Source of the DNA: Bacillota bacterium
GTDB lineage: Bacteria > Bacillota_I > Bacilli_A > RFN20 > CAG-288
Length of the DNA: 64,000 bases
Reading direction: 5' to 3'
Assembly (NCBI GenBank): GCA_023398335.1
Contig: JAEWSJ010000009.1
Span: 55,567-119,566, forward strand
In this document: positions 4,996 through 49,209 of the stretch, piece by piece
Numbering within the stretch: position 1 is the stretch's first letter
Layout: each line of letters opens with the position of its first letter
Program-made: the position numbers and the translations under genes
The notes under the pieces: model-generated
What the model saw: only the letters and a program-made list of their open reading frames with translations
Databases searched by the model: none
What the model was told of the DNA's origin: nothing

Positions 4996-6443
4996 AAATC
5001 TATATTTGTCTCCTTTTCAGCGATTGATATAACTTTCATGAAATTAGTTTTACCTGCACCAACTGGTGTACCTCCAGTAATAATTACCTTACTACCTTTA
5101 GGAATATTATATTGTTTTGCAATGTGAATTGCGAGTACTTCCATTTCTTCAATAAATTGAGGAACGTGTTTTACTAATTTTGGATAAACACCCCAACCCA
5201 TCATTCCTGATATACAAGCCGAGCGTTTATTTGATACTTCTATAATTGGACAAACTGGACGACATTTTGAAAGACGCTTAGCAGTTGAACCAGTTTCGGA
5301 AAAGCAAACAATAAGTTGAGCGTTTAAAAGAAGAGCTGTATTACTAACAGCATTCGCTAAAGCATCATTTAATGTCTTATTTGATGTTTCATAAGCTTCA
5401 TGGCCTAAGGTTTCATAATCCAAACATGTTTCCATTTTACGAGCAATTCGCGCTTGCATGGCACATGCTTCAACAGGGTATTCACCAGAAGCGGATTCAG
5501 CTGATAACATTACACTATCAGTTGATTCCATAACAGCTGTAGCTACATCACTGACTTCAGCTCTAGTTGGATTTGGATTTTCCTTCATTGAATCAAGCAT
5601 TTGTGTTGCGGTAATTACCGGTTTTCCAAGGACACGACATTTGTGAATCATCTCTCTTTGAATTACAGGAACATCCTCTGGCAATACTTCAACACCTAAA
5701 TCACCTCTAGCAACCATAAGACCGTCACTAGCTTCAATTATAGAATTTAAGTTAGCAACAGCTTCGGTATTTTCAACTTTAGAAATAATTTTTATATCAC
5801 TGCCACCATGAGAATCTAAGACAGCTCTAATATCTTGAATATCTTTTACATCTCTAACAAAAGATGCTGCAATATAATCAACATGATTTTCACAACCCCA
5901 TACAAGATCATTAAAATCTTTTTCGGATATATATGGTAATGTTAAATGTGTTTCTGGACAATTAACTCCACGTCTATTCTTTATAATATGGTGATTAAGT
6001 GCTTTTGTAATAATACATTTTTCTTTATCGTCTTTACCTGTAATTTCGAGTCCGAGATTACCATCATCTAATCTGATAGAATCACCAACTTTTACATCAT
6101 TAAATAATCCTGGATATGTAACAGAGAATTTAGTATTATCACCGATTATTTCATTCATGTAAATCTTAATTTCATCACCGGTTTCAATCATTGCTTGATC
6201 ACCTACGAAGACTCCAGTTCTAATTTCTGGTCCTTTAGTATCGAGCATGACAGGAATAATAATACCTTTTTCTTTTTCTATTTCACGTATTGTTTGTAAT
6301 TTTGCACCATGTTCTTCATAAGAACCATGAGAAAAATTTAAACGAGCAACATTCATTCCAGCGTCAATAAGTTTTAAAAGGACTTCTTTTGTTTGACTGG
6401 CTGGACCAATTGTGCATACTATTTTTGTTTTTTTATTAATCAT
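4992..6443 (-). CDS. pyk: Pyruvate kinase (short form, no C-terminal PEP-utiliser domain)
   Basis: 483 aa with canonical PK motifs. The pfkA-pyk operon order matches B. subtilis. Confidence 0.95.
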   Translation of the reverse strand: MINKKTKIVCTIGPASQTKEVLLKLIDAGMNVARLNFSHGSYEEHGAKLQTIREIEKEKGIIIPVMLDTKGPEIRTGVFVGDQAMIETGDEIKIYMNEIIGDNTKFSVTYPGLFNDVKVGDSIRLDDGNLGLEITGKDDKEKCIITKALNHHIIKNRRGVNCPETHLTLPYISEKDFNDLVWGCENHVDYIAASFVRDVKDIQDIRAVLDSHGGSDIKIISKVENTEAVANLNSIIEASDGLMVARGDLGVEVLPEDVPVIQREMIHKCRVLGKPVITATQMLDSMKENPNPTRAEVSDVATAVMESTDSVMLSAESASGEYPVEACAMQARIARKMETCLDYETLGHEAYETSNKTLNDALANAVSNTALLLNAQLIVCFSETGSTAKRLSKCRPVCPIIEVSNKRSACISGMMGWGVYPKLVKHVPQFIEEMEVLAIHIAKQYNIPKGSKVIITGGTPVGAGKTNFMKVISIAEKETNIDL

Positions 6444-6502
6444 TTTAAAAATCCTTTACTATAAAAATATTTTAACATAAACGTAATAATAAGATATATT
6501 CT

Positions 6503-7480
6503 TTATTCCAATATTCTTCCGATTTTAACGAATTCTTCAGAACTCTTTCTTGGAAATTTTAAGGCGTCTTGGATATTAAAATAAGATAATTTATTATTCA
6601 CAATACCAACGCATGAAGAAGAAATACCTCGCTTAAGCAATTCAACGGCATATTCTCCTAAACGTGAAGCAAGGATTCTGTCTGCAGCGGTAGGTGTTCC
6701 ACCTCTTTGCATATGGCCAAGAACTTCAGCTTTAGTTTCAAAGCCACACTTATTTTCAATTTCGCGTGCAAATTCATGAACATCACATACTTTTTCAGAA
6801 ATGATAATCATCGCGTGTTTCTTTCCATGATCTCTTTGTTCTTTTAATATATTAATAACTTCATCTTTTGTCATAGGTAAATCATTTGTAATTGTTAATT
6901 CAGCACCGCATGCTAAACCAGCATAAGCGGCCAAATCACCACATCTATTTCCCATTACTTCAATAATTGAGCAACGTTGATGAGAAGAGGAGGTATCTCT
7001 AAGTCTATCGACACATTCAACAATTGTATTAAGTGCAGTATCAAAGCCGATAGTAACATCGGTTGAGGCAATATCGTTATCGATTGTGCCTGGAACACCA
7101 ATGCAATTAATACCGAGTTTGGAGAGAGCTTGTGCTCCCATATATGTACCATCGCCACCGATGCACACTAAAGCATCAATTCCAATTTCTTTGAGAATAT
7201 CAGCGGCCTTTTTTTGAACTTCAGGATCTTTAAATTCTGGTAAACGTGCAGTACCCAAAATGGTACCACCTCTATTGATAATATCCGAAACTGAATGTCT
7301 ATTCATTTTGACTATGTTCTTTTCCAATATACCTTTATATCCATCGTAAATAGCATATGCTTCTAGTCCATATACTAAGCATGTTCTAACAATTGCTCTA
7401 ACACATGCATTCATTCCTGGTGCATCTCCACCACTAGTTAATATTCCAACTTTTTTAACCATAATAAAATCTCCTATCAA
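6503..7480 (-). CDS. pfkA: ATP-dependent 6-phosphofructokinase
   Basis: GGDGS-like motifs (TSGGDAPGMN, GGDGTY). Confidence 0.95.
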   Translation of the reverse strand: MIGDFIMVKKVGILTSGGDAPGMNACVRAIVRTCLVYGLEAYAIYDGYKGILEKNIVKMNRHSVSDIINRGGTILGTARLPEFKDPEVQKKAADILKEIGIDALVCIGGDGTYMGAQALSKLGINCIGVPGTIDNDIASTDVTIGFDTALNTIVECVDRLRDTSSSHQRCSIIEVMGNRCGDLAAYAGLACGAELTITNDLPMTKDEVINILKEQRDHGKKHAMIIISEKVCDVHEFAREIENKCGFETKAEVLGHMQRGGTPTAADRILASRLGEYAVELLKRGISSSCVGIVNNKLSYFNIQDALKFPRKSSEEFVKIGRILE

Positions 7481-11887: not shown

Positions 11888-12361
11888 ATGAATAATTGTG
11901 AATTTTATTTTTCTAATCAAACGACAGATGAAAATGAAGACATCGAATTATTATTTAATTCAGTTTTGCTTCATTGTTTAGATTTTATGGGACTTAAAGA
12001 CAAAATGTTAGCACTTAGTACTACGTTGGTTAATACTGAGCAAATACATAAGATTAATAAGGAATATAGAAATATAGATCGCCCAACCGATGTAATATCG
12101 TTTGCTTATGATGATGATAAAACTGAACTTAATGATGAAATAGATGATTTAGGGGAAATTGTCATTTGTTTAGATGTCGCTAGAATTCAAGCAAAAGAGT
12201 TTAATCATAAAGTCGAAAGAGAACTAGCTTTTTTATTTATTCATGGTTTTCTTCATTTGCTTGGTTACGATCATATGAAAGGTAAAAAAGAAGAGGAAGA
12301 AATGTTTTCTCTTCAAAACGATATATTAAATTCGTTTAAGTACGACTATAAGGAGATTTAA
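11888..12361 (+). CDS. ybeY: rRNA maturation endoribonuclease YbeY
   Basis: HGFLHLLGYDH zinc-binding motif. Confidence 0.9.
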   Translation: MNNCEFYFSNQTTDENEDIELLFNSVLLHCLDFMGLKDKMLALSTTLVNTEQIHKINKEYRNIDRPTDVISFAYDDDKTELNDEIDDLGEIVICLDVARIQAKEFNHKVERELAFLFIHGFLHLLGYDHMKGKKEEEEMFSLQNDILNSFKYDYKEI

Positions 12362-15892: not shown

Positions 15893-17818
15893 ATGATGCT
15901 AGATCAAAGTTTGATTGACAGTATTAGATCAAAAGCTGATATTGTTCAAGTTATTTCCTCCTATTTAGATGTTGAAAAAAAAGGCAGTAATTACCTAGCT
16001 ATTTGTCCTTTTCATCATGACACATCTCCATCGTTAACTATATCACCTACTAAACAGATTTTTACGTGCTTTGTTTGTCATACAACAGGTAATGCTTTTT
16101 CTTTTGTCATGAAATATGAACATATTGGCTTTATTGATGCGGTTAAAAAAGTTTGTTCAATTTGTGGAATAGATGTCCCTGAACTTAATAACTATAAAGT
16201 CATTAAGAGAATAAGAGAAAATGAAGAAGAACATAAAGCTTTAGAACAATTGTCAGATTACTATGCTTACATGCTTGATACTCAAGATGGAATTGAAGCT
16301 AAAAATTATTTAATTTCCCGTCAATTGCAAAATGATGTTATTAAACACTTTAAAATAGGCTATGCACCTCTAAATAATGAAGAATCCGTTAATATGTTGA
16401 GGAATAAATTGAATATTCCGCTTGAAGTATTGGATAGAGCAGGAATTACTTCCTCTTCAACCTCAACATTTAAGGATCGCTATAGAGATCGTATTATTTT
16501 TACTTTGGAAGATTTGCATGGTGATGTGGTTGGTTTCTCTGGTAGAAAATATAAAGACAATGAAGCTAACGAAGCAAAATATATTAATTCACCTGAAACC
16601 GTTCTATTTAAGAAGAGTCAATTATTGTATAATCTAAAAAACTCGATGGAATCATGTAAAAAAGATGGCTATATATATTTACTTGAAGGTTTCATGGATG
16701 TCATTGCTTTGTATCGAGCTGAAATTACATCCGCTGTAGGTCTAATGGGCACTTCTTTATCAAAGGAACATGTTGCTCTATTCAAGAAATTAAATGTTGA
16801 AATTAGATTATGTCTTGATTCTGATGGTCCAGGTCAAGCAGCTACAGAAAAATGTATTGCTGCATTATATGAAGAAAGAGTTAATTTTAAAGTAATAAAA
16901 CCTTTATATAATGGAAAAGATCCGGATGAATTGCTAGATTCAGAGGGTAAAGAAGCTCTTGTTGCTGCTATGAATGAGATTGAAGAACCGATTATTCATT
17001 CATTAAACTATAATATAAAAGCTAAATTACTAAATACATATGAAGATAAGGAAAAGTTTTTAGTTGCTAATAAAAATTATTTCTACAATATCAATACTTT
17101 AGCATTAAATGAGGTACTTGATACATTATCATTAGCTTTGAATGTTTCAGTTGACTCCATAAAAAATGTATATCGTTCTTTACGAAATAAATCTGACATT
17201 AAATCCGTACAATATGGAGACAATAAACCAGATAGAAGATATGAGTATACTTATATTGATTCATCCGTTGATATATATAAAGCACTTACAGATTACATTT
17301 TAAACATTACTGATAATGTTAGATTAAAATCAATTAATTCAAAACCAATTGTAATAAATGAATCGAGAATTATAGCTCGTATGGTCATGTCGAGAAAAAT
17401 GTGCAATGACTTTTTAAAGACTGAATCATTTGTTATTAGTCAATATAATTTGCTAGTTAGATATTTTAACGATTACTACTTGCGTAATAGTGTAGAATGT
17501 TTATGTGTGGAAAAATTGGGAGATATTGAAGACTCAGTTGAAAACACTTATGGAGAATTGATTGAGACTAATCAAAAATTTTCTAAAGACAAAGATGAGA
17601 TTTTAGGCATTATTTTACGGTTAAAGGTTTGTCATATCCCTTGTAAAACTAATATGTCTGATAGTTCTATCAGCAATCTCATTGACACTCATAAAGATTT
17701 ATGTCTAAAATTTGATATTTCAAACAAAAGTTTGGATGATAAATCTAAGGAAGAATTGATTTCTAAGTTGCAAAAAAATTACTCAAAAAAATTAGAAGGG
17801 AAGAAGAATAATGGCTAA
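15893..17818 (+). CDS. dnaG: DNA primase
   Basis: Zinc finger [10 protein letters not shown]...CFVCH, TOPRIM domain (EGFMD). Confidence 0.9.
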
Positions 17819-19013
17819 AGTAGAAAAAATTGAGATTAAAGTTGAGACAGAATGGAAAGATTTGTTATTAAAAAAAGGGACAAAAAAGGGATTTTTATCT
17901 CAAGATGATATTTACGCCATTATGGAACCTTTCGATATATCAGATGACCAATTGGACGAATTAATTAATTATGTTAAAGAATCTGGAATTGAAATTAAAA
18001 ATGATGTTGAAGAGGATGAACCTATTATTGATGATAGTTTAACACCTGAAGACTTACTTAAAAATGATGATGATATACTTGAAGATGATAATTTTGAAAT
18101 TGAAGTTGAAGAAGAGTCTATTCCTGAAATTCATGATTTAGAATTTTCAATTGATAATGTTGATATTAAGAATAATGACCCAGTTAAACAATATTTACGT
18201 GAAATTGGTAAATATCGTGTCTTAAAAGGAAAAGATGAAGAGATTGAAATTGCTCGTCGAATTGCTGAGGGTGATGAATCAGCTAAAGAAGAACTTACAA
18301 ATTGCAATTTAAAATTAGTTATTTCTATCGCTAAACACTATGTCAATAGAGGAATGCAATTCTTGGATTTAATTCAAGAAGGTAATTTAGGATTGATGAA
18401 AGCTGTCGAAAAGTTCGATTATACAAAAGGCTATAAATTTTCAACATATGCTACATGGTGGATTAGACAAGCCATCACTAGAGCTTTAGCTGATCAAGCT
18501 CGTACAATACGTATTCCTGTCCATATGGTTGAAACAATAAATAAAATTACTCGTGCTTCACGTAAATTAACACAAAAGTTAAATCGTGATCCTACACCTG
18601 AAGAAATTTCTAAAGAACTTGATGGCGCATACTCTGCTGAGAGAATTAGAGAAATTCAACTGATTGCCATGGATCCTTTATCATTAGAGAAACCTGTTGG
18701 TGAAGAAGAAGATTCACATGTTGGTGATTTCATCGAAGATAAAGATAATGAATCACCATTAAAATATGCTAATTCTTCTTTATTAAAAGATAAATTAAAT
18801 GATGTTTTAGGTGAATTAACAGATCGTGAAGAAAGAGTCATTCGTTTACGTTATGGCCTTGATGATGGAAGAAACCACACTCTTGAAGAAGTTGGCAAAG
18901 AATTTGGTGTTACTCGTGAACGTATTCGTCAAATTGAAGCCAAAGCAATTAAGAAATTACGTCATCCAACACGTTCAAAACAATTGAGAGATTATTTAGA
19001 CGATATAAATTAA
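17811..19013 (+). CDS. sigA: RNA polymerase principal sigma factor
   Basis: Regions 1.1 to 4.2 present. [14 protein letters not shown] (2.4) and [21 protein letters not shown] (4.2). The dnaG-sigA order matches Bsu. Confidence 0.9.
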
Positions 19014-19092: not shown

Positions 19093-20121
19093 ATGAGTAA
19101 AGACATTAACAAATCCTTAATTAATGATTATGTTAGTAGTATTGATTCTTCAAAAATTGCCAAGTCTAAAATGATAAGCGATTTCATTGATGAGCAAAAT
19201 TTGAATGAAGATGAGATTGATTATCTTTTTCGTGCTTTAAAAGATAAAAACATTCGACTTTCTGAGATTGATTTTAATAGCCCTAGTACTTCAAGTAAAA
19301 AAATATATTCTACGTCTGACTCGTTAAATATGTATTTGCAAGAGATTGGTCGCTATCCTTTATTAACATTTGAAGATGAAAAAAAATTATCGAAACTAAT
19401 CCATGAAGGCGATACCGAAGCTTATGATGAATTGGTCAATAGCAACCTAAGACTTGTTGCATCAATAGCTAAAGAATACAAAGGCAAGAGCACTTTATCA
19501 TATCAAGATTTAATTCAAGAGGGTAATTTAGGGCTTTTACGTGCTGCTCAAAAATACGATTATACAAGAGGCTTTAAGTTTTCAACTTACGCCGTATGCT
19601 GGATAAGACAATCTATTTCACGTGCAATAGCCTCAAAAGGGCACGCTATTGCCTTGCCAGTATATATTCAAGAATCATTAAATAAAATTAAAGGTATATC
19701 TAGTAAATTAGTTTTAAGATACGATAGAGATCCTACCCCAAAAGAAATAGCTGATGAGTCAAGAGATGAATTTACTGAAGACAAAGTTAGAAAACTTTTA
19801 TCATATGATAATTCGGTTGTTTCTTTGGACAAACCAGTTAATGAAAATGATTCAGGAGTTTCATTAGCTAATTTTTTATCAAATGATGATAATAGCCTAT
19901 TAATTGATAATCAAATAGAAGATATTAGATATGCCATTAATAAACTATCCGAACGAGAACGCAGCTTAATTATTAAACGTTATGGTTTATATGATAATAG
20001 TCCTCACACTTTGGAAACTTTAGGAGAAGAAGAAGGCGTAACACGTGAACGTGCACGTCAGCTTGTAAATCGCGCTCTAAAAAAGATGGCAGAATATTTA
20101 AAAGATGGCAGTAATAAGTAA
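19093..20121 (+). CDS. Sigma-70 family sigma factor, SigA paralog (group 2-like)
   Basis: 342 aa with regions 1.2 to 4.2: YLQEIGRYPLLTFEDE, TYAVCWIRQSISRA, GVTRERARQLVNRALKKM. Has its own terminator/promoter context after sigA. Confidence 0.8.
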   Translation: MSKDINKSLINDYVSSIDSSKIAKSKMISDFIDEQNLNEDEIDYLFRALKDKNIRLSEIDFNSPSTSSKKIYSTSDSLNMYLQEIGRYPLLTFEDEKKLSKLIHEGDTEAYDELVNSNLRLVASIAKEYKGKSTLSYQDLIQEGNLGLLRAAQKYDYTRGFKFSTYAVCWIRQSISRAIASKGHAIALPVYIQESLNKIKGISSKLVLRYDRDPTPKEIADESRDEFTEDKVRKLLSYDNSVVSLDKPVNENDSGVSLANFLSNDDNSLLIDNQIEDIRYAINKLSERERSLIIKRYGLYDNSPHTLETLGEEEGVTRERARQLVNRALKKMAEYLKDGSNK

Positions 20122-29924: not shown

Positions 29925-30166
29925 AATTAACTCCTATAACTACAATTAATTCTATATCATGTCTTCTTATTGTTCTACTTAAAGTGTAAAAATAACCTTA
30001 TTAGTATTAAAATAGTAGATATTTAGTAAATATTTTGAACTATAATTCCTAAATGAATAATACATCGTTATCAATTAGTAAAAATATTAGAATTATGGCA
30101 AAAAATATAGAAATCGGTTATTTATTATGTTAAACTATTTAACGTGTCTAATGGAGGAGTAAAATT

Positions 30167-38355: not shown

Positions 38356-39462
38356 ATGGATAGAATCATTTTATTTGGTGGTTCTTTTGACCCAATTCAT
38401 AATGGACATTTAGAAATAGCTTCCTTCGCTCTTAAGACTTTAGGGGCGAAGAAGGTTATTTTTATTCCCGCAAAAAACCCACGCTGGAAAAAACCAACAC
38501 CAATCGAAGATCGCTTAAATTTAGTTCAACTCGCATTAAAAGGTAAGGATAATTTCGAATTATCAACTTATGAAATTGAATCAAAAGAAGAAACAAATTA
38601 TACCTATGATACGGTAAAGCATTTTAAATTAGTTTATCCTAATGATGAATTATATTTTTTAATTGGCTTTGATCAAGTTAATCAGTTGGATAGATGGAAA
38701 AACATTGATGAATTATCTTCATTAATACACTTTTTGGCCGTTTATAGACCAATTGATGATTTAAACAAAGAAAATATCAACAAGTATCATTTAACCGTTT
38801 TAGAAGGCTTAAATTTATCTGTCTCATCAACGCTGATTAGGGAACTTAAGTCTCTTGATTTGCCATTACCTTGTATAAAATATATCTTGGATAAAGAATT
38901 GTATTTTGTACCTAAAGTTAAGTCATATCTAAAGACCTCACGCTATTTACATTCAGTAAGTGTCGCTTATACCGCCTATGATATTGCAGAAGCAAATAAG
39001 TTAAACAAGTATGATGCATTTTTAGCGGGATATCTCCACGATGTCGGAAAATATGCTAAAATAGAAAAGTATGAAGATATAGTTAAAAAATTATATTCAA
39101 AATATTTTCCATTTGGTATTCCAAATTGGGTCTATCATCAGTTCATCGGCAAAATTATCGTTCAAAATGACTTTAAGATTCTCGATGAAGATATTCTTGA
39201 GTCAATTGAATTTCACACGACAGGGAAGAGAAATATGTCAGCGTTAGATAAGATTATCTTTGCTGCTGATAAAATTGAACCTACACGTGGATTTGATTCT
39301 AGTGATCTTATTAATTCGATGAAAAAAGATTATGAAAAAGGATTTATTGAGGTATTAAAAGCTAACAGAGAATATTTAGTATCGCATAATTCATATGTAC
39401 AAAATGAAGATTTATTGACGAAAGAATGTTATGATTATTATTTAAAAGGAGAAGAGAAATAA
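38356..39462 (+). CDS. nadD: Fusion protein: nicotinate-nucleotide adenylyltransferase NadD (N-terminus) plus HD-domain YqeK (C-terminus)
   Basis: Residues 1-190 carry ILFGGSFDPIHNGHL (nucleotidyltransferase HxGH). Residues 200-368 carry HSVSVAYTAYDIA...GYLHDVGK (HD motif). In Bsu these are two adjacent genes. Confidence 0.8.
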   Translation: MDRIILFGGSFDPIHNGHLEIASFALKTLGAKKVIFIPAKNPRWKKPTPIEDRLNLVQLALKGKDNFELSTYEIESKEETNYTYDTVKHFKLVYPNDELYFLIGFDQVNQLDRWKNIDELSSLIHFLAVYRPIDDLNKENINKYHLTVLEGLNLSVSSTLIRELKSLDLPLPCIKYILDKELYFVPKVKSYLKTSRYLHSVSVAYTAYDIAEANKLNKYDAFLAGYLHDVGKYAKIEKYEDIVKKLYSKYFPFGIPNWVYHQFIGKIIVQNDFKILDEDILESIEFHTTGKRNMSALDKIIFAADKIEPTRGFDSSDLINSMKKDYEKGFIEVLKANREYLVSHNSYVQNEDLLTKECYDYYLKGEEK

Positions 39463-39835: not shown

Positions 39836-40543
39836 ATGAAAAATATTTTATTAATTGCAGCGATGCCAGAAGAATTAGATGCTTTAAAAGATAAGTTAAG
39901 TAAATTTAAAGAAAAAAGTTATGGCGTAATAAAAGGTATCGAATTTAAAACTAAAAAGGGAAATGTTTTTGCTTTTGTTGGTAAAGTTGGTAAAGCTAAT
40001 ACGGCGTTTAACATCGGATATTTAGCTGCGCAAATGGATATTAAACGTATCATTAATTTTGGAGTGGCAGGCTCATTATCAAAAAATATCGTACCTCTTG
40101 ACGTTGTAGTAGCCGAAAAGGTTTGTTATTTTGATTGTGATTTAACATCAGACCCAAAATACAAATTAGGTCAAATGGCAGGTGAGGAATTGTATTATTT
40201 AGCTGATCCAACAATCAACAGAATATTAAATAAAATTAATACAACTTTAAATATTAAGACAGGAACAATAATCTCTTCTGATTCATTCGCTACTAAAGCT
40301 AATATGACAGAAGATTTATTGAAGCATTTTGATAATCCATTATGTGTTGATATGGAGTCAGGTGCTGTAGGACAAATATCACATCGTTTAAATATTCCAT
40401 TTACAATTATTCGCGCGATATCAGATATGGTCCTTGCTGAATCTAATACAGATATGTTTAATGAATTCTTGGAAATGTCTTCTCGTCGAGCTGCATCAAC
40501 AGTCTTACATATTCTAAATAATGAATACGTTGATGAACAATAA
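39836..40543 (+). CDS. mtnN: 5'-methylthioadenosine/S-adenosylhomocysteine nucleosidase
   Basis: MKNILLIAAMPEEL... PNP/UDP phosphorylase fold. Confidence 0.8.
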   Translation: MKNILLIAAMPEELDALKDKLSKFKEKSYGVIKGIEFKTKKGNVFAFVGKVGKANTAFNIGYLAAQMDIKRIINFGVAGSLSKNIVPLDVVVAEKVCYFDCDLTSDPKYKLGQMAGEELYYLADPTINRILNKINTTLNIKTGTIISSDSFATKANMTEDLLKHFDNPLCVDMESGAVGQISHRLNIPFTIIRAISDMVLAESNTDMFNEFLEMSSRRAASTVLHILNNEYVDEQ

Positions 40544-40557
40544 TATATAAAGTCTAT

Positions 40558-40588
40558 AACCTGATAAATAATATTTGTCAGGTTTTTT
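40558..40588 (+). terminator. Rho-independent terminator after mtnN
   Basis: aacctgataaa...tttgtcagg long stem followed by T6. Confidence 0.75.
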
Positions 40589-40776
40589 AATTGGCTAAAA
40601 CGACATAAGACGTATAAGTAATAAGATAAATGTCTCTTGTGGACGAATAGAAGCACAATGATATTAAAGGAAAAAATATATTCTCATACACGTATCATCT
40701 ATTTATATAATTATTAATAAATTACTAAATTGATAGGGAAAGCCCATAATAGGGCATATTACTACATATTATAATA

Positions 40777-40804
40777 ACTTCGTATAATCTCTATTATGTA
40801 AACT
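40777..40804. other. dif: Chromosome dimer resolution site dif (XerC/XerD target)
   Basis: ACTTCGTATAA-TCTCTA-TTATGTAAACT, compared with the B. subtilis/Firmicutes dif ACTTCCTAGAA-TATATA-TTATGTAAACT. The right arm is an 11/11 match and the left arm is 9/11. It lies in a 450 bp non-coding gap at the strand-bias switch. Confidence 0.8.
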
Positions 40805-40992
40805 AACAAATAAAAAAGTGCCTATTTAAGGAATTTTTATAATTTATTACATAAATTATTAACCGTGATTTCACAGAAAAAAGATAGTTATCCACCGCTT
40901 TATATTACTATATATTTACTAATTATCTACTAATATAAAACTAAATTATTAATTTTGAATTTTTTGTTACTAATATCTCACTACAGTCTTAT

Positions 40993-41829
40993 CTATTTCG
41001 TATTAGTCTGATTCTTCTTAATTAAATTAAAAGTAATCGATTTGCTAGTAGTGATTCCATACTTCAATTCTAATTCTCTTTTAATGAAATGAATTACTAT
41101 TTCTATTATTATCATGAATAGCACTGAAATAAACGTATAACCAAATAAATCAGTCATTTCTAAATTTAAGAACGAAATATTGATCAACGTACCAATTCCC
41201 TTTAGATTCGTATTAGAAATAAATACTTCACTCATAAGCTCTACTTTCAATCCTAGAGCGGATGCTTGTGAAAGACCGATGAAGAGATAAGGAAGAGATA
41301 AAGGACACAAGACCTTTGTAAAATTATTAATTGAATGTCTGCCTTCAATTGTAATTATATCGCGATAGTCTTTTAATATAATTTTACTTCCCTCAAGAGT
41401 AGATTTATATATAAGTGGAAAAGTAATTAAGAAGACAATTACATATGTTGTGACTTTAGTATAGATAAGAAGGACTAGAATTAACGATACTGTAGGTATA
41501 GATGTCAAAAAATAGATCATCGGTTTTAAGATTACTTCGATTTGAGAAAAGAAACCAGCGAGTAATCCAAGAAAGTATCCTATAAAGGTCGATATAAATA
41601 AAACGATAATCACTCGCATAATCGAATAGCCAAGATTTATCCATGTATCATTATCAGCCATCAAAATAAACATTTTATATATAGTTAAGAATAACTCTGG
41701 AACAACTTTATAAGAAGTAAGATATGCAATTAGTTCGTATATTCCACATAACAAAATAATACCTATAAGCATATAGATAGAATTTAGAAATTTTTTGTTC
41801 TTAAAAATGTTAATGTTCAATTCCTTCAT
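40993..41829 (-). CDS. ABC-importer type permease (6 TM)
   Basis: 278 aa with 6 TM helices and an EAA-like loop (LSQASALGLKVELMSEVF). Sits downstream of two lipoprotein genes. Confidence 0.5.
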   Translation of the reverse strand: MKELNINIFKNKKFLNSIYMLIGIILLCGIYELIAYLTSYKVVPELFLTIYKMFILMADNDTWINLGYSIMRVIIVLFISTFIGYFLGLLAGFFSQIEVILKPMIYFLTSIPTVSLILVLLIYTKVTTYVIVFLITFPLIYKSTLEGSKIILKDYRDIITIEGRHSINNFTKVLCPLSLPYLFIGLSQASALGLKVELMSEVFISNTNLKGIGTLINISFLNLEMTDLFGYTFISVLFMIIIEIVIHFIKRELELKYGITTSKSITFNLIKKNQTNTK

Positions 41830-41924: not shown

Positions 41925-42977
41925 TTATTTATACAATTTAGAGAATGTAGTATCTTTTAGAGCTGAGAATCCAGTTAATGCTGCTTCAGCAAAGAATTCA
42001 TTGATTGAAAATTGCTTAGAATTAAATGCAAGTCCATTAACGTCTAATACAGTAGTTAAGGTCTCTTTATCTACTCCATAGGTTGTACTGGCTTTATAGG
42101 TATTATTTTCTTCTGCTTTATTTATTAAGCTTAAGATACCCTGCCCTTTATTATTTTCTAAATCATTTAAACTTTCATCAAAATTAGCTAAGAAATTATC
42201 TCGACTTGATATTAAATCCTTTTCTGTAGCATTTTCGAGACGATTGGAAATAAATAATCCAGCTTGTGGAAATCCATCAAAGCCATTCCCAGAATTCATA
42301 TTGTTTGTTTTCGAATATTTTTGCCACTCTTTTGTTATATTATATTTAATTGATAATGAATTATTAGCCGCTAACGCCTTGGTAACGTATGGTTCGGAAA
42401 GAATAACATAATTTACTGTTTTCCCTTCTAATACCTTAGTTTCAGCAACGCTTTCAGCTAAAGCAACACCAGCTAAAGACGAATCTATTTTCACATTGTA
42501 CATTTTTTCAAATAGCGAATTAAATATAGATGGGGACCCAAATGAAACAATATTATCTTCTTCATCCAACGTTGAATTTGTGTCATTTCCTAAGTCAATG
42601 AGATAAGCATTACCTTTTGTAACAACCCGAGCTAATTTATATGAGGAGTTTTTCTTTTCGATAAATGTTTGCCCTTTTGTTATATCAAATATAATGGCAT
42701 CATATTCTGTGCCTGAAACAAAAGCCGCTGGAATAATCGTTGCAGGATTCGAAGCAATTGTGCAATTATCGTGATCTTCAACAAAAGGAGCTAATGCAAC
42801 AGAAGGGGCACCAATCGGTGACAAAACCTTAAAATCTAGTTTCTTAGTACTTAATGCACTATTACAACTAGTAAGTAAAAGTGGCACCATTAATAAAGTA
42901 ATATATTTTTTTTGCATAATTATTTCTCCTATGTTTATTATATAGCTATAACATTTATTTTCTAATGATATGCTCAT
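41925..42977 (-). CDS. Lipoprotein, putative solute-binding protein (paralog A)
   Basis: Signal peptide plus lipobox LLLTSC. Paralogous to the next gene (shared GLFISNRLENA, KLARVT/V.GNAY). Confidence 0.5.
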   Translation of the reverse strand: MSISLENKCYSYIINIGEIIMQKKYITLLMVPLLLTSCNSALSTKKLDFKVLSPIGAPSVALAPFVEDHDNCTIASNPATIIPAAFVSGTEYDAIIFDITKGQTFIEKKNSSYKLARVVTKGNAYLIDLGNDTNSTLDEEDNIVSFGSPSIFNSLFEKMYNVKIDSSLAGVALAESVAETKVLEGKTVNYVILSEPYVTKALAANNSLSIKYNITKEWQKYSKTNNMNSGNGFDGFPQAGLFISNRLENATEKDLISSRDNFLANFDESLNDLENNKGQGILSLINKAEENNTYKASTTYGVDKETLTTVLDVNGLAFNSKQFSINEFFAEAALTGFSALKDTTFSKLYK

Positions 42978-44009
42978 CTATTTATAGAATGAAGAATAAA
43001 CAGATGGAGCGATTGAATCAACAAAAACATTTAATCTACGTAAATTATTTACTCTTGCAAAACTATCAAGATCAAGCGTATAAGAGCAAAATCCTAAAGC
43101 ATTCACGCCGTTCGGATTTTTATTTCCGTTTAAACAATCACAAATATCGCCATATTCCGCTCCGAAATAATCAATTAAGTCAATTTTCTTATCATCATAA
43201 TAATTCTTAATAATTGATGAAGTAGCATTACCGTTGCTTTGTGATAAATCTGATAGATTCTTATCAATCGAGATTAAAAAATTCTCTCTAGCGTCCTTTA
43301 AAGGGCCTTCTTTAGCATTTTCTAATCTATTAGAAATAAATAAACCGATTGAAGGAACACGAGCATAATCAGTTTCAACGCTACAAAATGTTGAGACAAG
43401 ATTTTGAAATAGATGATAATTTCCATTTTTATCATTTAATAAACGCGAAACATATGGTTCATTTAATATGGCATAATCACCTTCTCCGGAAATGAAATGA
43501 TTATAAGTATCTTTAACATCATCATAAAAAGTGTCTATCGCATTATTATTTATAGCATTATTCTTTATAAATAAAGAGTTTTGAATACCCATAGATGTAT
43601 ATGTATGAGTGTCATAGCGACTATAAGCATAATCATATGAAATGACATTATCAAATGATGAGATAGCTTCTCCATCTGCTACCTCACCTCTCTTTATGAC
43701 ATAAGCATTTCCACATCCTGTGACACGAGCTAGTTTAAATGGGACATTTTTATTTTGTATTAACTCAATTCCTTTAGCTAAATCATATAATATGAAATCA
43801 TATTCTGAAGTGAAAAAAGCATCGTATACTAGAGAAGAAGTAACAAAAGCACAATTATCCGTATCATCTGCATATGAAAGAAAAGGATAGGAATCCCCTC
43901 CTTTAAATGTAATTATTTTAAAAGTCAAACCTTTTTGTATCCAAGAACATGAGGATATAAGTAATGAACTAGATAAAACTAAGGTTAATAATGCTTTTGT
44001 TTTTTTCAT
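42978..44009 (-). CDS. Lipoprotein, putative solute-binding protein (paralog B)
   Basis: Lipobox LLISSCSW. Tandem duplicate of 41925-42977. Confidence 0.5.
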   Translation of the reverse strand: MKKTKALLTLVLSSSLLISSCSWIQKGLTFKIITFKGGDSYPFLSYADDTDNCAFVTSSLVYDAFFTSEYDFILYDLAKGIELIQNKNVPFKLARVTGCGNAYVIKRGEVADGEAISSFDNVISYDYAYSRYDTHTYTSMGIQNSLFIKNNAINNNAIDTFYDDVKDTYNHFISGEGDYAILNEPYVSRLLNDKNGNYHLFQNLVSTFCSVETDYARVPSIGLFISNRLENAKEGPLKDARENFLISIDKNLSDLSQSNGNATSSIIKNYYDDKKIDLIDYFGAEYGDICDCLNGNKNPNGVNALGFCSYTLDLDSFARVNNLRRLNVFVDSIAPSVYSSFYK

Positions 44010-45276: not shown

Positions 45277-46179
45277 TTACTTCTTGTTCATGAACTCGTC
45301 ATAAGCCGATAAAATTCTTTTGGTAGACACGTGAGTATATATTTGGGTAGTTTCAATTTTAGAATGCCCTAGCATTTCTTGAACATGTTTTAAATTTGCT
45401 CCATTTTCTAACAAATGGGTGGCGAATGAATGCCGCAAAGTATGAGGTGAAATATCTATTTCAATTCCAGCTCTATGAGCGTAGATTTTAATTCGTTTCC
45501 AAAAAAATTGTCTTGAAAGTGGTTGACCACTATTATTTAAGAAAACGTATTTTGAGCGATAATATGGACTTATATTTCTCACTTTTGAAAAATAAAGAGA
45601 CAAATATTGAAGAGCAAATTCTCCAATAGGAATAATTCTTTCTTTATTTCCTTTACCTTTGGTTTTTATATAACCTTGTTGGAAATTGATATTGCCTAAT
45701 TCGAGTGACAATAACTCCGACACTCTTAAACCTGAAGCATACATTGTTTCCAACATAGCTTTATCTCTTATCTCACTTTTATTTGATAAATCAAAAACAT
45801 TTAATAAATCATCTACTTCTTCAAGTGATAATACTGAAGGAAGATGACTTTCGTGTTTTGGTAAATACAATCCAATTAATGGAACGTTAATTAAATTTTC
45901 TTTATTCAAATATATATATAAATAACGTATTGTTCCTGCTCTTCTAATGATGGTTGAAGTATTTTTTCCTGAATTAGATAAATAATTAATAAAAGATGAA
46001 ATATCATCTCTTTTTAATTCTGTTAGTTCTTTATCTTTAATAAAGGCGATAAATTGCTCGATATCAATAGAATATGTAGTAATCGTTGAACTAGAGTCAC
46101 CTTTTTCAACAGTTAGATAAGTTAAAAACTCATCTTTTATATCACTAATTTTCATTTTTCTTATCCTTCTTAATATCAC
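45277..46179 (-). CDS. xerD: Tyrosine recombinase XerD-like (RipX-type). The true start is probably the MKISDIK Met about 8 codons in.
   Basis: Catalytic R...K...HxxR...H...Y all present (GLRVSEL, KGKGNKER, HTLRHSFAT, LGHS, QIYTHV). Adjacent to deoB as ripX is to drm in Bsu. Confidence 0.85.
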   Translation of the reverse strand: MILRRIRKMKISDIKDEFLTYLTVEKGDSSSTITTYSIDIEQFIAFIKDKELTELKRDDISSFINYLSNSGKNTSTIIRRAGTIRYLYIYLNKENLINVPLIGLYLPKHESHLPSVLSLEEVDDLLNVFDLSNKSEIRDKAMLETMYASGLRVSELLSLELGNINFQQGYIKTKGKGNKERIIPIGEFALQYLSLYFSKVRNISPYYRSKYVFLNNSGQPLSRQFFWKRIKIYAHRAGIEIDISPHTLRHSFATHLLENGANLKHVQEMLGHSKIETTQIYTHVSTKRILSAYDEFMNKK

Positions 46180-47332: not shown

Positions 47333-47410
47333 AATAGTCTAAATACTCCTTTCTAGCTCTTTTAGTAATAAATTAGTATTTATTTAGTTGTTTCACATTA
47401 TATTATTAGT

Positions 47411-49078: not shown

Positions 49079-49209
49079 ATTATCACCTCATCAATTCGTA
49101 CTATTATTATATAATATTTATCGCTGATTTTGCCTATTATGTAAATTAAAAAGACTTTAATAAGATTATTTATTAAAAAAAATCTTCCCCAAAAAGGAGA
49201 AGATAAGTG

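Follow-up and report, generated by a model that had tools for sequence, protein, structure and literature searches.

The 28-bp site at positions 40777-40804 is very probably the chromosomal dif of a bacterium of the Bacilli with a small genome and a low GC content. This bacterium is known only from metagenome assemblies, and its relatives are labeled Bacilli or Erysipelotrichaceae. It was analyzed within a window of 64,000 nucleotides, the whole stretch of DNA considered here. The site combines the features by which dif was recognized in the survey of Kono et al. (PMC3025954), namely conserved arms, a palindromic structure and a position at the GC-skew shift point, the latter as seen in the 64-kb window; the Xer review PMC5357621 was used as a second source for these features. 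An earlier note on this DNA had read the site as an XerC/XerD-type chromosomal dif, and every check made in the window or in relatives supported that reading. A conserved block was also found to flank the site on one side. This block, if functional, is the part of the finding that could matter more. The features discussed below are collected in Table 1.

TABLE 1. Location of the dif site and of the features around it in the 64-kb window.
Feature	Position	Strand	Remarks
mtnN-like gene (PNP_UDP_1, MTA/SAH nucleosidase type)	39836..40543	+	Left of the gap
Non-coding gap between convergent operons	40544..40992	.	449 bp, holds the GC-skew turning point
Intrinsic terminator of mtnN	40558..40584	+	12-pair stem followed by a T run
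dif core	40777..40804	+	ACTTCGTATAATCTCTATTATGTAAACT; sequence read directly, arms matched across genomes
dif left arm (putative XerC/CodV-type)	40777-40787		ACTTCGTATAA
dif central region	40788-40793		TCTCTA, 6 bp
dif right arm (putative XerD/RipX-type)	40794-40804		TTATGTAAACT
A6 / short GC core / T5 block	40812..40838	.	Directly right of dif; from clade alignments
DnaA-box-like 9-mer	40888..40896	+	TTATCCACC; 83 bp from the end of dif
Four ACTA(A/T) / TACTAA units	40907..40944	+	11-bp spacing; the first unit comes 19 bp after the box
ABC transporter permease gene (BPD_transp_1)	40993..41829	-	Last gene of the - strand block
XerD-type tyrosine recombinase gene	45277..46155	-	292 aa (public assemblies); the ORF extends to 46179

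Sequence and Architecture of the dif Core

The site is built as 11+6+11 bp. By analogy with B. subtilis (PMC5357621), its left arm would be of the XerC/CodV type and its right arm of the XerD/RipX type. When the two arms are compared as inverted repeats, 7 of the 11 positions are symmetric and 4 differ. The window site is identical at 24 of 28 positions to the B. subtilis dif, ACTTCCTAGAATATATATTATGTAAACT, as given by Kono et al. 2011 (PMC3025954). The right arm is fully conserved (11/11), the left arm matches at 9/11 positions (the substitutions being C6G and G9T), and two differences are found in the 6-bp center, which reads TCTCTA in the window versus TATATA in B. subtilis. The position of the 28-mer, the match of both arms and the length of the center had all been given in the earlier note, and they were confirmed.

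The 28-mer occurs a single time in the 64-kb window, even when up to three mismatches are allowed, and it was matched in none of 100 shuffled sequences. A scan of the window for arm pairs separated by spacers of 5–8 bp returned no other pair with fewer than 6 mismatches out of 22, the runner-up standing at 6/22. By our own arithmetic, the number of occurrences expected by chance for the 22 arm bases is about 1e-7 in 64 kb of 30% GC.

Position in the Window: Gap, Genes, and Skew

The site was also said to lie in a convergent gap devoid of genes, and this description holds. The gap separates mtnN (+) from an ABC permease gene (-) and contains no convincing ORF (only some of 22–34 aa) and no tRNA; no RNA family of Rfam matches it, either at the gathering threshold or at E <= 1. 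On its left side, a + strand block parE-parC-yqeG-yqeH-nadD/yqeK-rsfS-mtnN ends with mtnN. The orientation of the genes switches at the gap, since between 8419 and 40543 nearly all of them lie on the + strand, and between 40993 and 63787 nearly all on the - strand. The base composition follows the same course in this window of about 30% G+C: the GC skew stays above zero between about 8 kb and 40 kb and below zero between 41 kb and 64 kb, and the cumulative G-C curve reaches its maximum at 40670, 107 bp from dif, this maximum being a local one, computed within the 64-kb window. Replication forks and genes thus converge on the gap, a pattern typical of a terminus and not of an origin.

Housekeeping genes account for all of the 52 larger ORFs in the window. 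To the left of dif are found mraZ, rsmH, thrS, pyk, pfk, ybeY, cdd, era, recO, glyS, dnaG and sigA, then a second sigma-70-family gene, trmK, ispH, apt, relA, hisS, aspS, a DEAD helicase gene and ispG, and finally rpmG, efp, plsY, parE, parC, yqeG, yqeH, a nadD-yqeK fusion, rsfS and mtnN. To its right, the permease gene is followed by the genes of two proteins without family match, of a phosphopentomutase-like metalloenzyme, xerD and dinB, and then by recN, dxs, xseA, nusB, tex, leuS and rpsD.

The segment 1876-8309, inside the + strand replichore, is a local exception to the skew and orientation pattern and as such counts against the dif reading. It carries - strand genes (thrS, those of a ROK kinase and of a CmpB-like protein, pyk and pfk) together with a negative skew; it may be a local inversion, or may simply consist of counter-oriented genes. 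Two sigma-70-family genes follow dnaG in tandem (17811-19013 and 19093-20121, +), both encoding regions 1.2, 2, 3 and 4, the product of the second one being a 342-aa protein devoid of region 1.1. The nadD (cytidylyltransferase-like) and yqeK (HD domain) genes are fused into one 368-aa ORF (38356-39462, +), for which the HD part alone is detected in some relatives (L124 and L131). On the other side of dif, between the permease gene and the phosphopentomutase-like gene, two proteins of 350 and 343 aa are encoded at 41925-44009 (-); they have no Pfam or NCBIfam match and may be the substrate-binding lipoproteins of a nucleoside transporter.

Conservation of the Arms and of the Locus in Other Genomes

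The two 11-nt arms, with the center left free, were scanned against one genome per species, which yielded at least 119 loci. Identical arms are present in the genomes of at least 119 species, which cover GC contents of 22 to 72%, and each locus contains a single match. Among the matches listed, the genomes that carry these arms belong to Bacilli, Clostridia, Gemmatimonadota, Myxococcota, and other phyla. The label "Firmicutes-type" that had been attached to the site is therefore a loose one, although the identification as dif is sound. The exact conservation of an AT-rich 22-mer in genomes of 70% GC is to be expected of a functional site only, and not of a compositional effect. The center varies among these loci (at least 119), TATATA being the commonest one among the matches listed. 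A switch of the GC skew from positive to negative at the site is observed in 34 of the 55 usable loci and the reverse switch in 3 of the 55, again among the matches listed, a locus being considered as usable when at least 1.5 kb is available on each side of the site.

A second series of comparisons was based on MtnN. The window protein is also encoded on metagenome contigs whose gap region shows 99% identity; these come from the same species and are thus uninformative about conservation. Homologues that are 51–73% identical are found on contigs of 35–55% GC with the same gene order. Each of these relatives has exactly one dif-like site in its mtnN/permease gap, in the same orientation and with at most one arm mismatch, and no second one was seen in any of the 5–20 kb loci. 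The centers of these sites (ACTCTA, TGCCTA, TAACTA, and CGTCTA) fit the pattern NNNCTA, and the remainder of the gap is largely unalignable. The order yqe operon, dif, deoB-xerD-dinB is kept in six of the scan loci, even where the mtnN or permease genes are missing; these six are labeled as Bacilli, Bacillales or Erysipelotrichaceae MAGs. Such a conserved order in relatives indicates that dif is an old and positionally conserved feature of the terminus in this clade.

A Conserved Block on the Side of the Putative XerD Arm

A succession of conserved elements lies to the right of dif, next to its putative XerD arm. The nearest one is kept in the clade in the form A-run...AAGG..TTTTT. It is probably a weak bidirectional terminator, which would shield dif from transcription of the permease operon, its stem being of 3–4 bp in the window. 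A small hairpin is also present on the opposite side of dif. The DnaA-box-like 9-mer comes next: the window copy agrees with the DnaA-box consensus TTATCCACA at 8 of 9 positions, and the clade consensus of this box is (A/C)(G/C)TTATCCAC(A/C). The ACTA(A/T)/TACTAA units that follow number three or four per locus across lineages. Direct repeats spaced about 11 bp apart are also what makes up ArcA-type sites.

This composite of box and TACTAA units is common to about 18 distinct lineages of 27–55% GC, though the spacer that separates it from dif cannot be aligned. It was identified in the window and in loci L125, L127, L129, L131, L001, L011, L026, L061, L095, and L140-L149. The distance between the end of dif and the box is 83–87 bp in 12 lineages and 95–99 bp in 6, with none between, in a sample where ten loci come from a metagenome scan for dif plus box, the pattern of which required the box at 78–102 bp. 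The distance from the box to the repeats is fixed, at 19 (+11n). On a neighbor-joining tree of YqeH, which is a rough one built on a single protein, the two distance classes are interspersed, which suggests repeated jumps of about one helical turn. Extra DnaA-box-like 9-mers are observed in the spacer (7 versus 0.45 expected), and GC-rich relatives have three DnaA-like boxes. Throughout the 1.19 Mb of DNA fetched, the box-plus-array composite is found only beside dif; it stays there in L001, where the permease genes are gone.

The block region matches no Rfam family and contains no plausible ORF, and its RNA folding is not significant (z-scores of -1.96 and -0.54). Matches to sigma-70 promoters in the block do not exceed the shuffled expectation, and no conserved -10/-35 pair could be recognized by eye. 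Searched against plasmid and phage collections, the block has no similarity and the dif core alone gives matches. In our search of the literature, neither DnaA boxes nor accessory sequences were found to be described next to a dif of a chromosome.

Arrays without a box are also encountered elsewhere in the window. Three ACTAA units at 11-bp spacing lie at 30001-30027 (-), in the divergent gap between ispG and rpmG, and three more at 47362-47388 (-), just after recN and before dinB. The array that follows recN is kept in relatives (about 18415-18451 in L129 and about 19230-19266 in L131) as TGTGAAACAACTAA-N6-ACTAA-N6-ACTAA, even where the gap is convergent. Since such arrays occur without a box at other places, the repeats may bind a general factor.

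It is conceivable, but on balance unlikely, that dif in this order-level clade, rather than being a bare 28-bp site, lies at the heart of a conserved module about 170 bp long. Such a module would be made, in order, of dif, the A/T-flanked hairpin, a spacer of about 85 or 96 bp, one to three DnaA-box-like sites and four TACTAA units. The box and the TACTAA repeats would bind putative accessory proteins on the same helix face as the core, an arrangement that is put forward here as a tentative minority reading. This is what could be suggested by the persistence of the composite in about 18 lineages beyond an unalignable spacer, by the two discrete classes of dif-box distance combined with the fixed box-repeat distance, by the excess of extra boxes, by the restriction of the composite to the vicinity of dif and its retention in L001, and by the lack of ORF or Rfam family and the weak RNA folding of the region. 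On the other hand, the known cer/psi accessory sequences are plasmid-borne and flank the XerC arm, the spacing statistics are not independent because the lineages are related, the tree is a rough neighbor-joining one built on a single protein, ten loci were ascertained with a pattern that demanded the box within 78–102 bp, and ACTAA arrays exist without a box. Moreover, the conserved gene order could by itself hold two independent elements adjacent to each other. A functional coupling of the block to dif looks doubtful on this balance.

If the module does exist, an accessory nucleoprotein complex would form on its XerD side. This complex would be the chromosomal counterpart of what the accessory sequences of cer/psi provide on plasmids and would govern the resolution of dimers, possibly with less dependence on FtsK. 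Alternatively, it would couple resolution to DnaA or to the organization of the terminus; SMC unloading, fork pausing and DnaA titration are other processes that the module might control instead. To our knowledge, descriptions of chromosomal dif generally have it work without accessory DNA, and a phased block would thus offer a new handle on dimer resolution or terminus organization in small-genome Firmicutes.

The Xer Recombinase Gene and the Proposed Reaction

A full-length gene for a XerD-type recombinase lies 4.5 kb from dif. Its product scores 327.3 bits on TIGR02225, the XerD equivalog model, which is 2.3 bits below the cut-off of 329.6; it reaches 273.7 bits on the XerC model and 117.7 bits on the XerS model (cut-off 267), and it passes NF001399. 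It can be aligned over its full length with E. coli XerD (1A0P; E = 1e-55), and the catalytic Arg, Lys, His-x-x-Arg, His, and Tyr motifs are aligned to those of XerD as RVSEL, KGNKER, HTLRH, LGH, and IYTHV. Across the clade, xerD stays 1–7 kb from dif, beside dinB and recN. The parE and parC genes, encoding topoisomerase IV, are 4–8 kb from dif on the opposite side to xerD.

Neither a second Xer gene (xerC) nor an ftsK/spoIIIE translocase gene is present within the 64-kb window. G-rich oligomers are oriented toward dif over the 64 kb (AGGGAA 20:1, AAGGGAA 10:0), with a polarity that is inseparable from the coding-strand bias, and the known KOPS/SRS motifs GAGAAGGG and GGGNAGGG are too rare in the window for a polarity test. 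Half-sites resembling the XerD arm (at most one mismatch) number 3 in the window versus 4.45 expected, which is no excess over chance. One such half-site, TTATGTAAATT, lies at 49137-49147 (+) in the recN/dxs intergenic region.

The presence of one Xer-type gene in the window, close to dif across the clade and somewhat reminiscent of the xerS-difSL arrangement (PMC5357621), might suggest that the site is served by a single recombinase, like XerS, XerH or XerA, instead of a XerC/XerD pair. The small size of the genomes of this clade, with a contig of 1.18 Mb in one relative, would go in the same direction. Against this, the two arms differ at 4 of 11 positions, an asymmetry that does not vary among phyla possessing XerC as well as XerD, the center is of 6 bp and not 11, the protein scores 327 bits as XerD versus 118 as XerS, well under the XerS cut-off, and its gene is 4.5 kb away and not adjacent. 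A single-recombinase system is, in view of these observations, improbable.

With a XerC/XerD-type dif as the preferred reading, the expected sequence of events would be as follows. An odd number of crossovers would join sister chromosomes into a dimer that carries two copies of dif. A XerC-type recombinase would occupy the left arm, and the XerD-type one, presumably the product of the nearby gene, the right arm. The two dif sites would synapse at the closing septum, where strand exchange over the 6-bp center, activated by a translocase of the FtsK/SpoIIIE family, would resolve the dimer. The assignment of the arms, the involvement of XerC and of the translocase, and the reaction itself are here modeled on E. 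coli and B. subtilis.

As a dif, the site is mainly of value for annotation. It places the terminus of replication in an uncultured lineage and orients its two replichores, and it provides a reference point for assembly checks and for the detection of elements that integrate through Xer.

Unlikely Readings: Mobile-Element or Fortuitous Origin

Xer recombination is also exploited by mobile elements, and the site could in principle be an attachment site or a remnant (of an IMEX, or of a plasmid or phage resolution site) and not the dif of the chromosome itself. The dif core does match short stretches of Enterococcus and Staphylococcus plasmids and of two phages, and the same arms are found in seven viral contigs. 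Two viral contigs have a layout of their own. A perfect dif is accompanied in L133 by a copy 12 kb away (79-106 and 12083-12110), in an IMEX-like arrangement where the second copy has the same center and XerD arm and a degenerate XerC arm; L139 contains, within 1 kb (6285-7247), four dif-like sites that all point the same way. Unlike in L133 and L139, no second, degenerate dif-like site is found in the window or in the clade loci. In addition, the larger ORFs around the site are all of the housekeeping kind, the site lies exactly at the switch of skew and gene orientation, and the locus has orthologues throughout an order-level clade. A mobile origin is highly improbable on these grounds. The remark that dif is an entry point for IMEX stands as a general statement, with nothing integrated at the dif of the window. 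An IMEX would show as foreign DNA between dif and a further dif-like site, usually a degenerate one; here the flanks are housekeeping genes, no other site in the window comes closer than 6 arm mismatches, and neither a prophage nor an integrase other than the Xer-type one was detected in the window.

The segment 40774-40788, ATAACTTCGTATAAT, equals the left arm (13 bp) of loxP from phage P1 together with the two adjoining bases of the spacer, and AT-rich palindromes are plentiful at 30% GC; yet a chance near-palindrome or a lox-like site of a Cre-type recombinase is effectively refuted by the shuffles (0/100), by conservation in genomes of up to 72% GC and in the orthologous gaps, by a right arm that is not a loxP arm, by a spacer of 6 bp in place of the 8 bp that separate the two 13-bp inverted repeats of loxP, the left arm alone being similar, and by the lack of a Cre-like gene in the window.

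Comparison with Known Systems

The chromosomal dif proposed here shares with that of B. subtilis (CodV/RipX) its 28-bp length, its 11+6+11 organization, its intergenic position at the terminus and the presence of an encoded XerD/RipX-type recombinase. It differs from it by the two substitutions of the left arm, by its TCTCTA center in place of TATATA, by the location of xerD at 4.5 kb from dif, and by the conserved box-plus-repeat block that flanks the XerD arm. We know of no such block described for the B. subtilis dif. Another difference concerns fork arrest, as no fork trap of the RTP/Ter type is detectable here. The Ter consensus sequences KMACTAANWNNWCTATGTACYAAATNTTC and AGNATGTTGTAAYKAA were taken from PMC3317982. 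For the B. subtilis Ter consensus, the best match differs at 6 positions, no fewer and no more than after shuffling, and none of the best matches to E. coli Ter falls in the gap, which leaves no sign of a Tus-Ter trap there. The ACTAA repeats do not match the RTP or E. coli Ter consensus beyond chance, and the orientations of the three arrays (- at 30.0 kb, + at 40.9 kb, - at 47.4 kb) make no coherent fork trap.

The sites predicted by Kono et al. 2011 (PMC3025954) were recognized by the same criteria, the present lineage being outside that survey. They reported that most xerC genes lie close to dif and that xerD genes lie close to the origin; here, in contrast, the gene close to dif is the XerD-type one. 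The difSL/XerS system of streptococci and lactococci is likewise a dimer-resolution site of Firmicutes with a recombinase gene close by. However, difSL is 31 bp long with an 11-bp center and has xerS directly adjacent, in contrast to the 28 bp, the 6-bp center and the XerD-type gene 4.5 kb off observed here; this center, together with a XerS score of 117.7 bits for a cut-off of 267, places the window site outside that system.

For the flanking block, the nearest precedent is the accessory DNA of cer/psi (PMC5357621; bioRxiv 10.64898/2026.02.23.706985). Sites of the cer/psi type carry some 180 bp of such DNA next to the XerC arm, to which PepA binds together with ArgR or ArcA. The likeness lies in a Xer core with an adjacent stretch of 100–180 bp, which in the present block contains putative binding motifs. 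The cer/psi sites are plasmid-borne, with accessory DNA on the XerC side and known proteins (PepA/ArgR/ArcA), and the center of cer is of 8 bp. The block described here is, in contrast, chromosomal, on the XerD side, made of other motifs (TTATCCAC and TACTAA), and helically phased.
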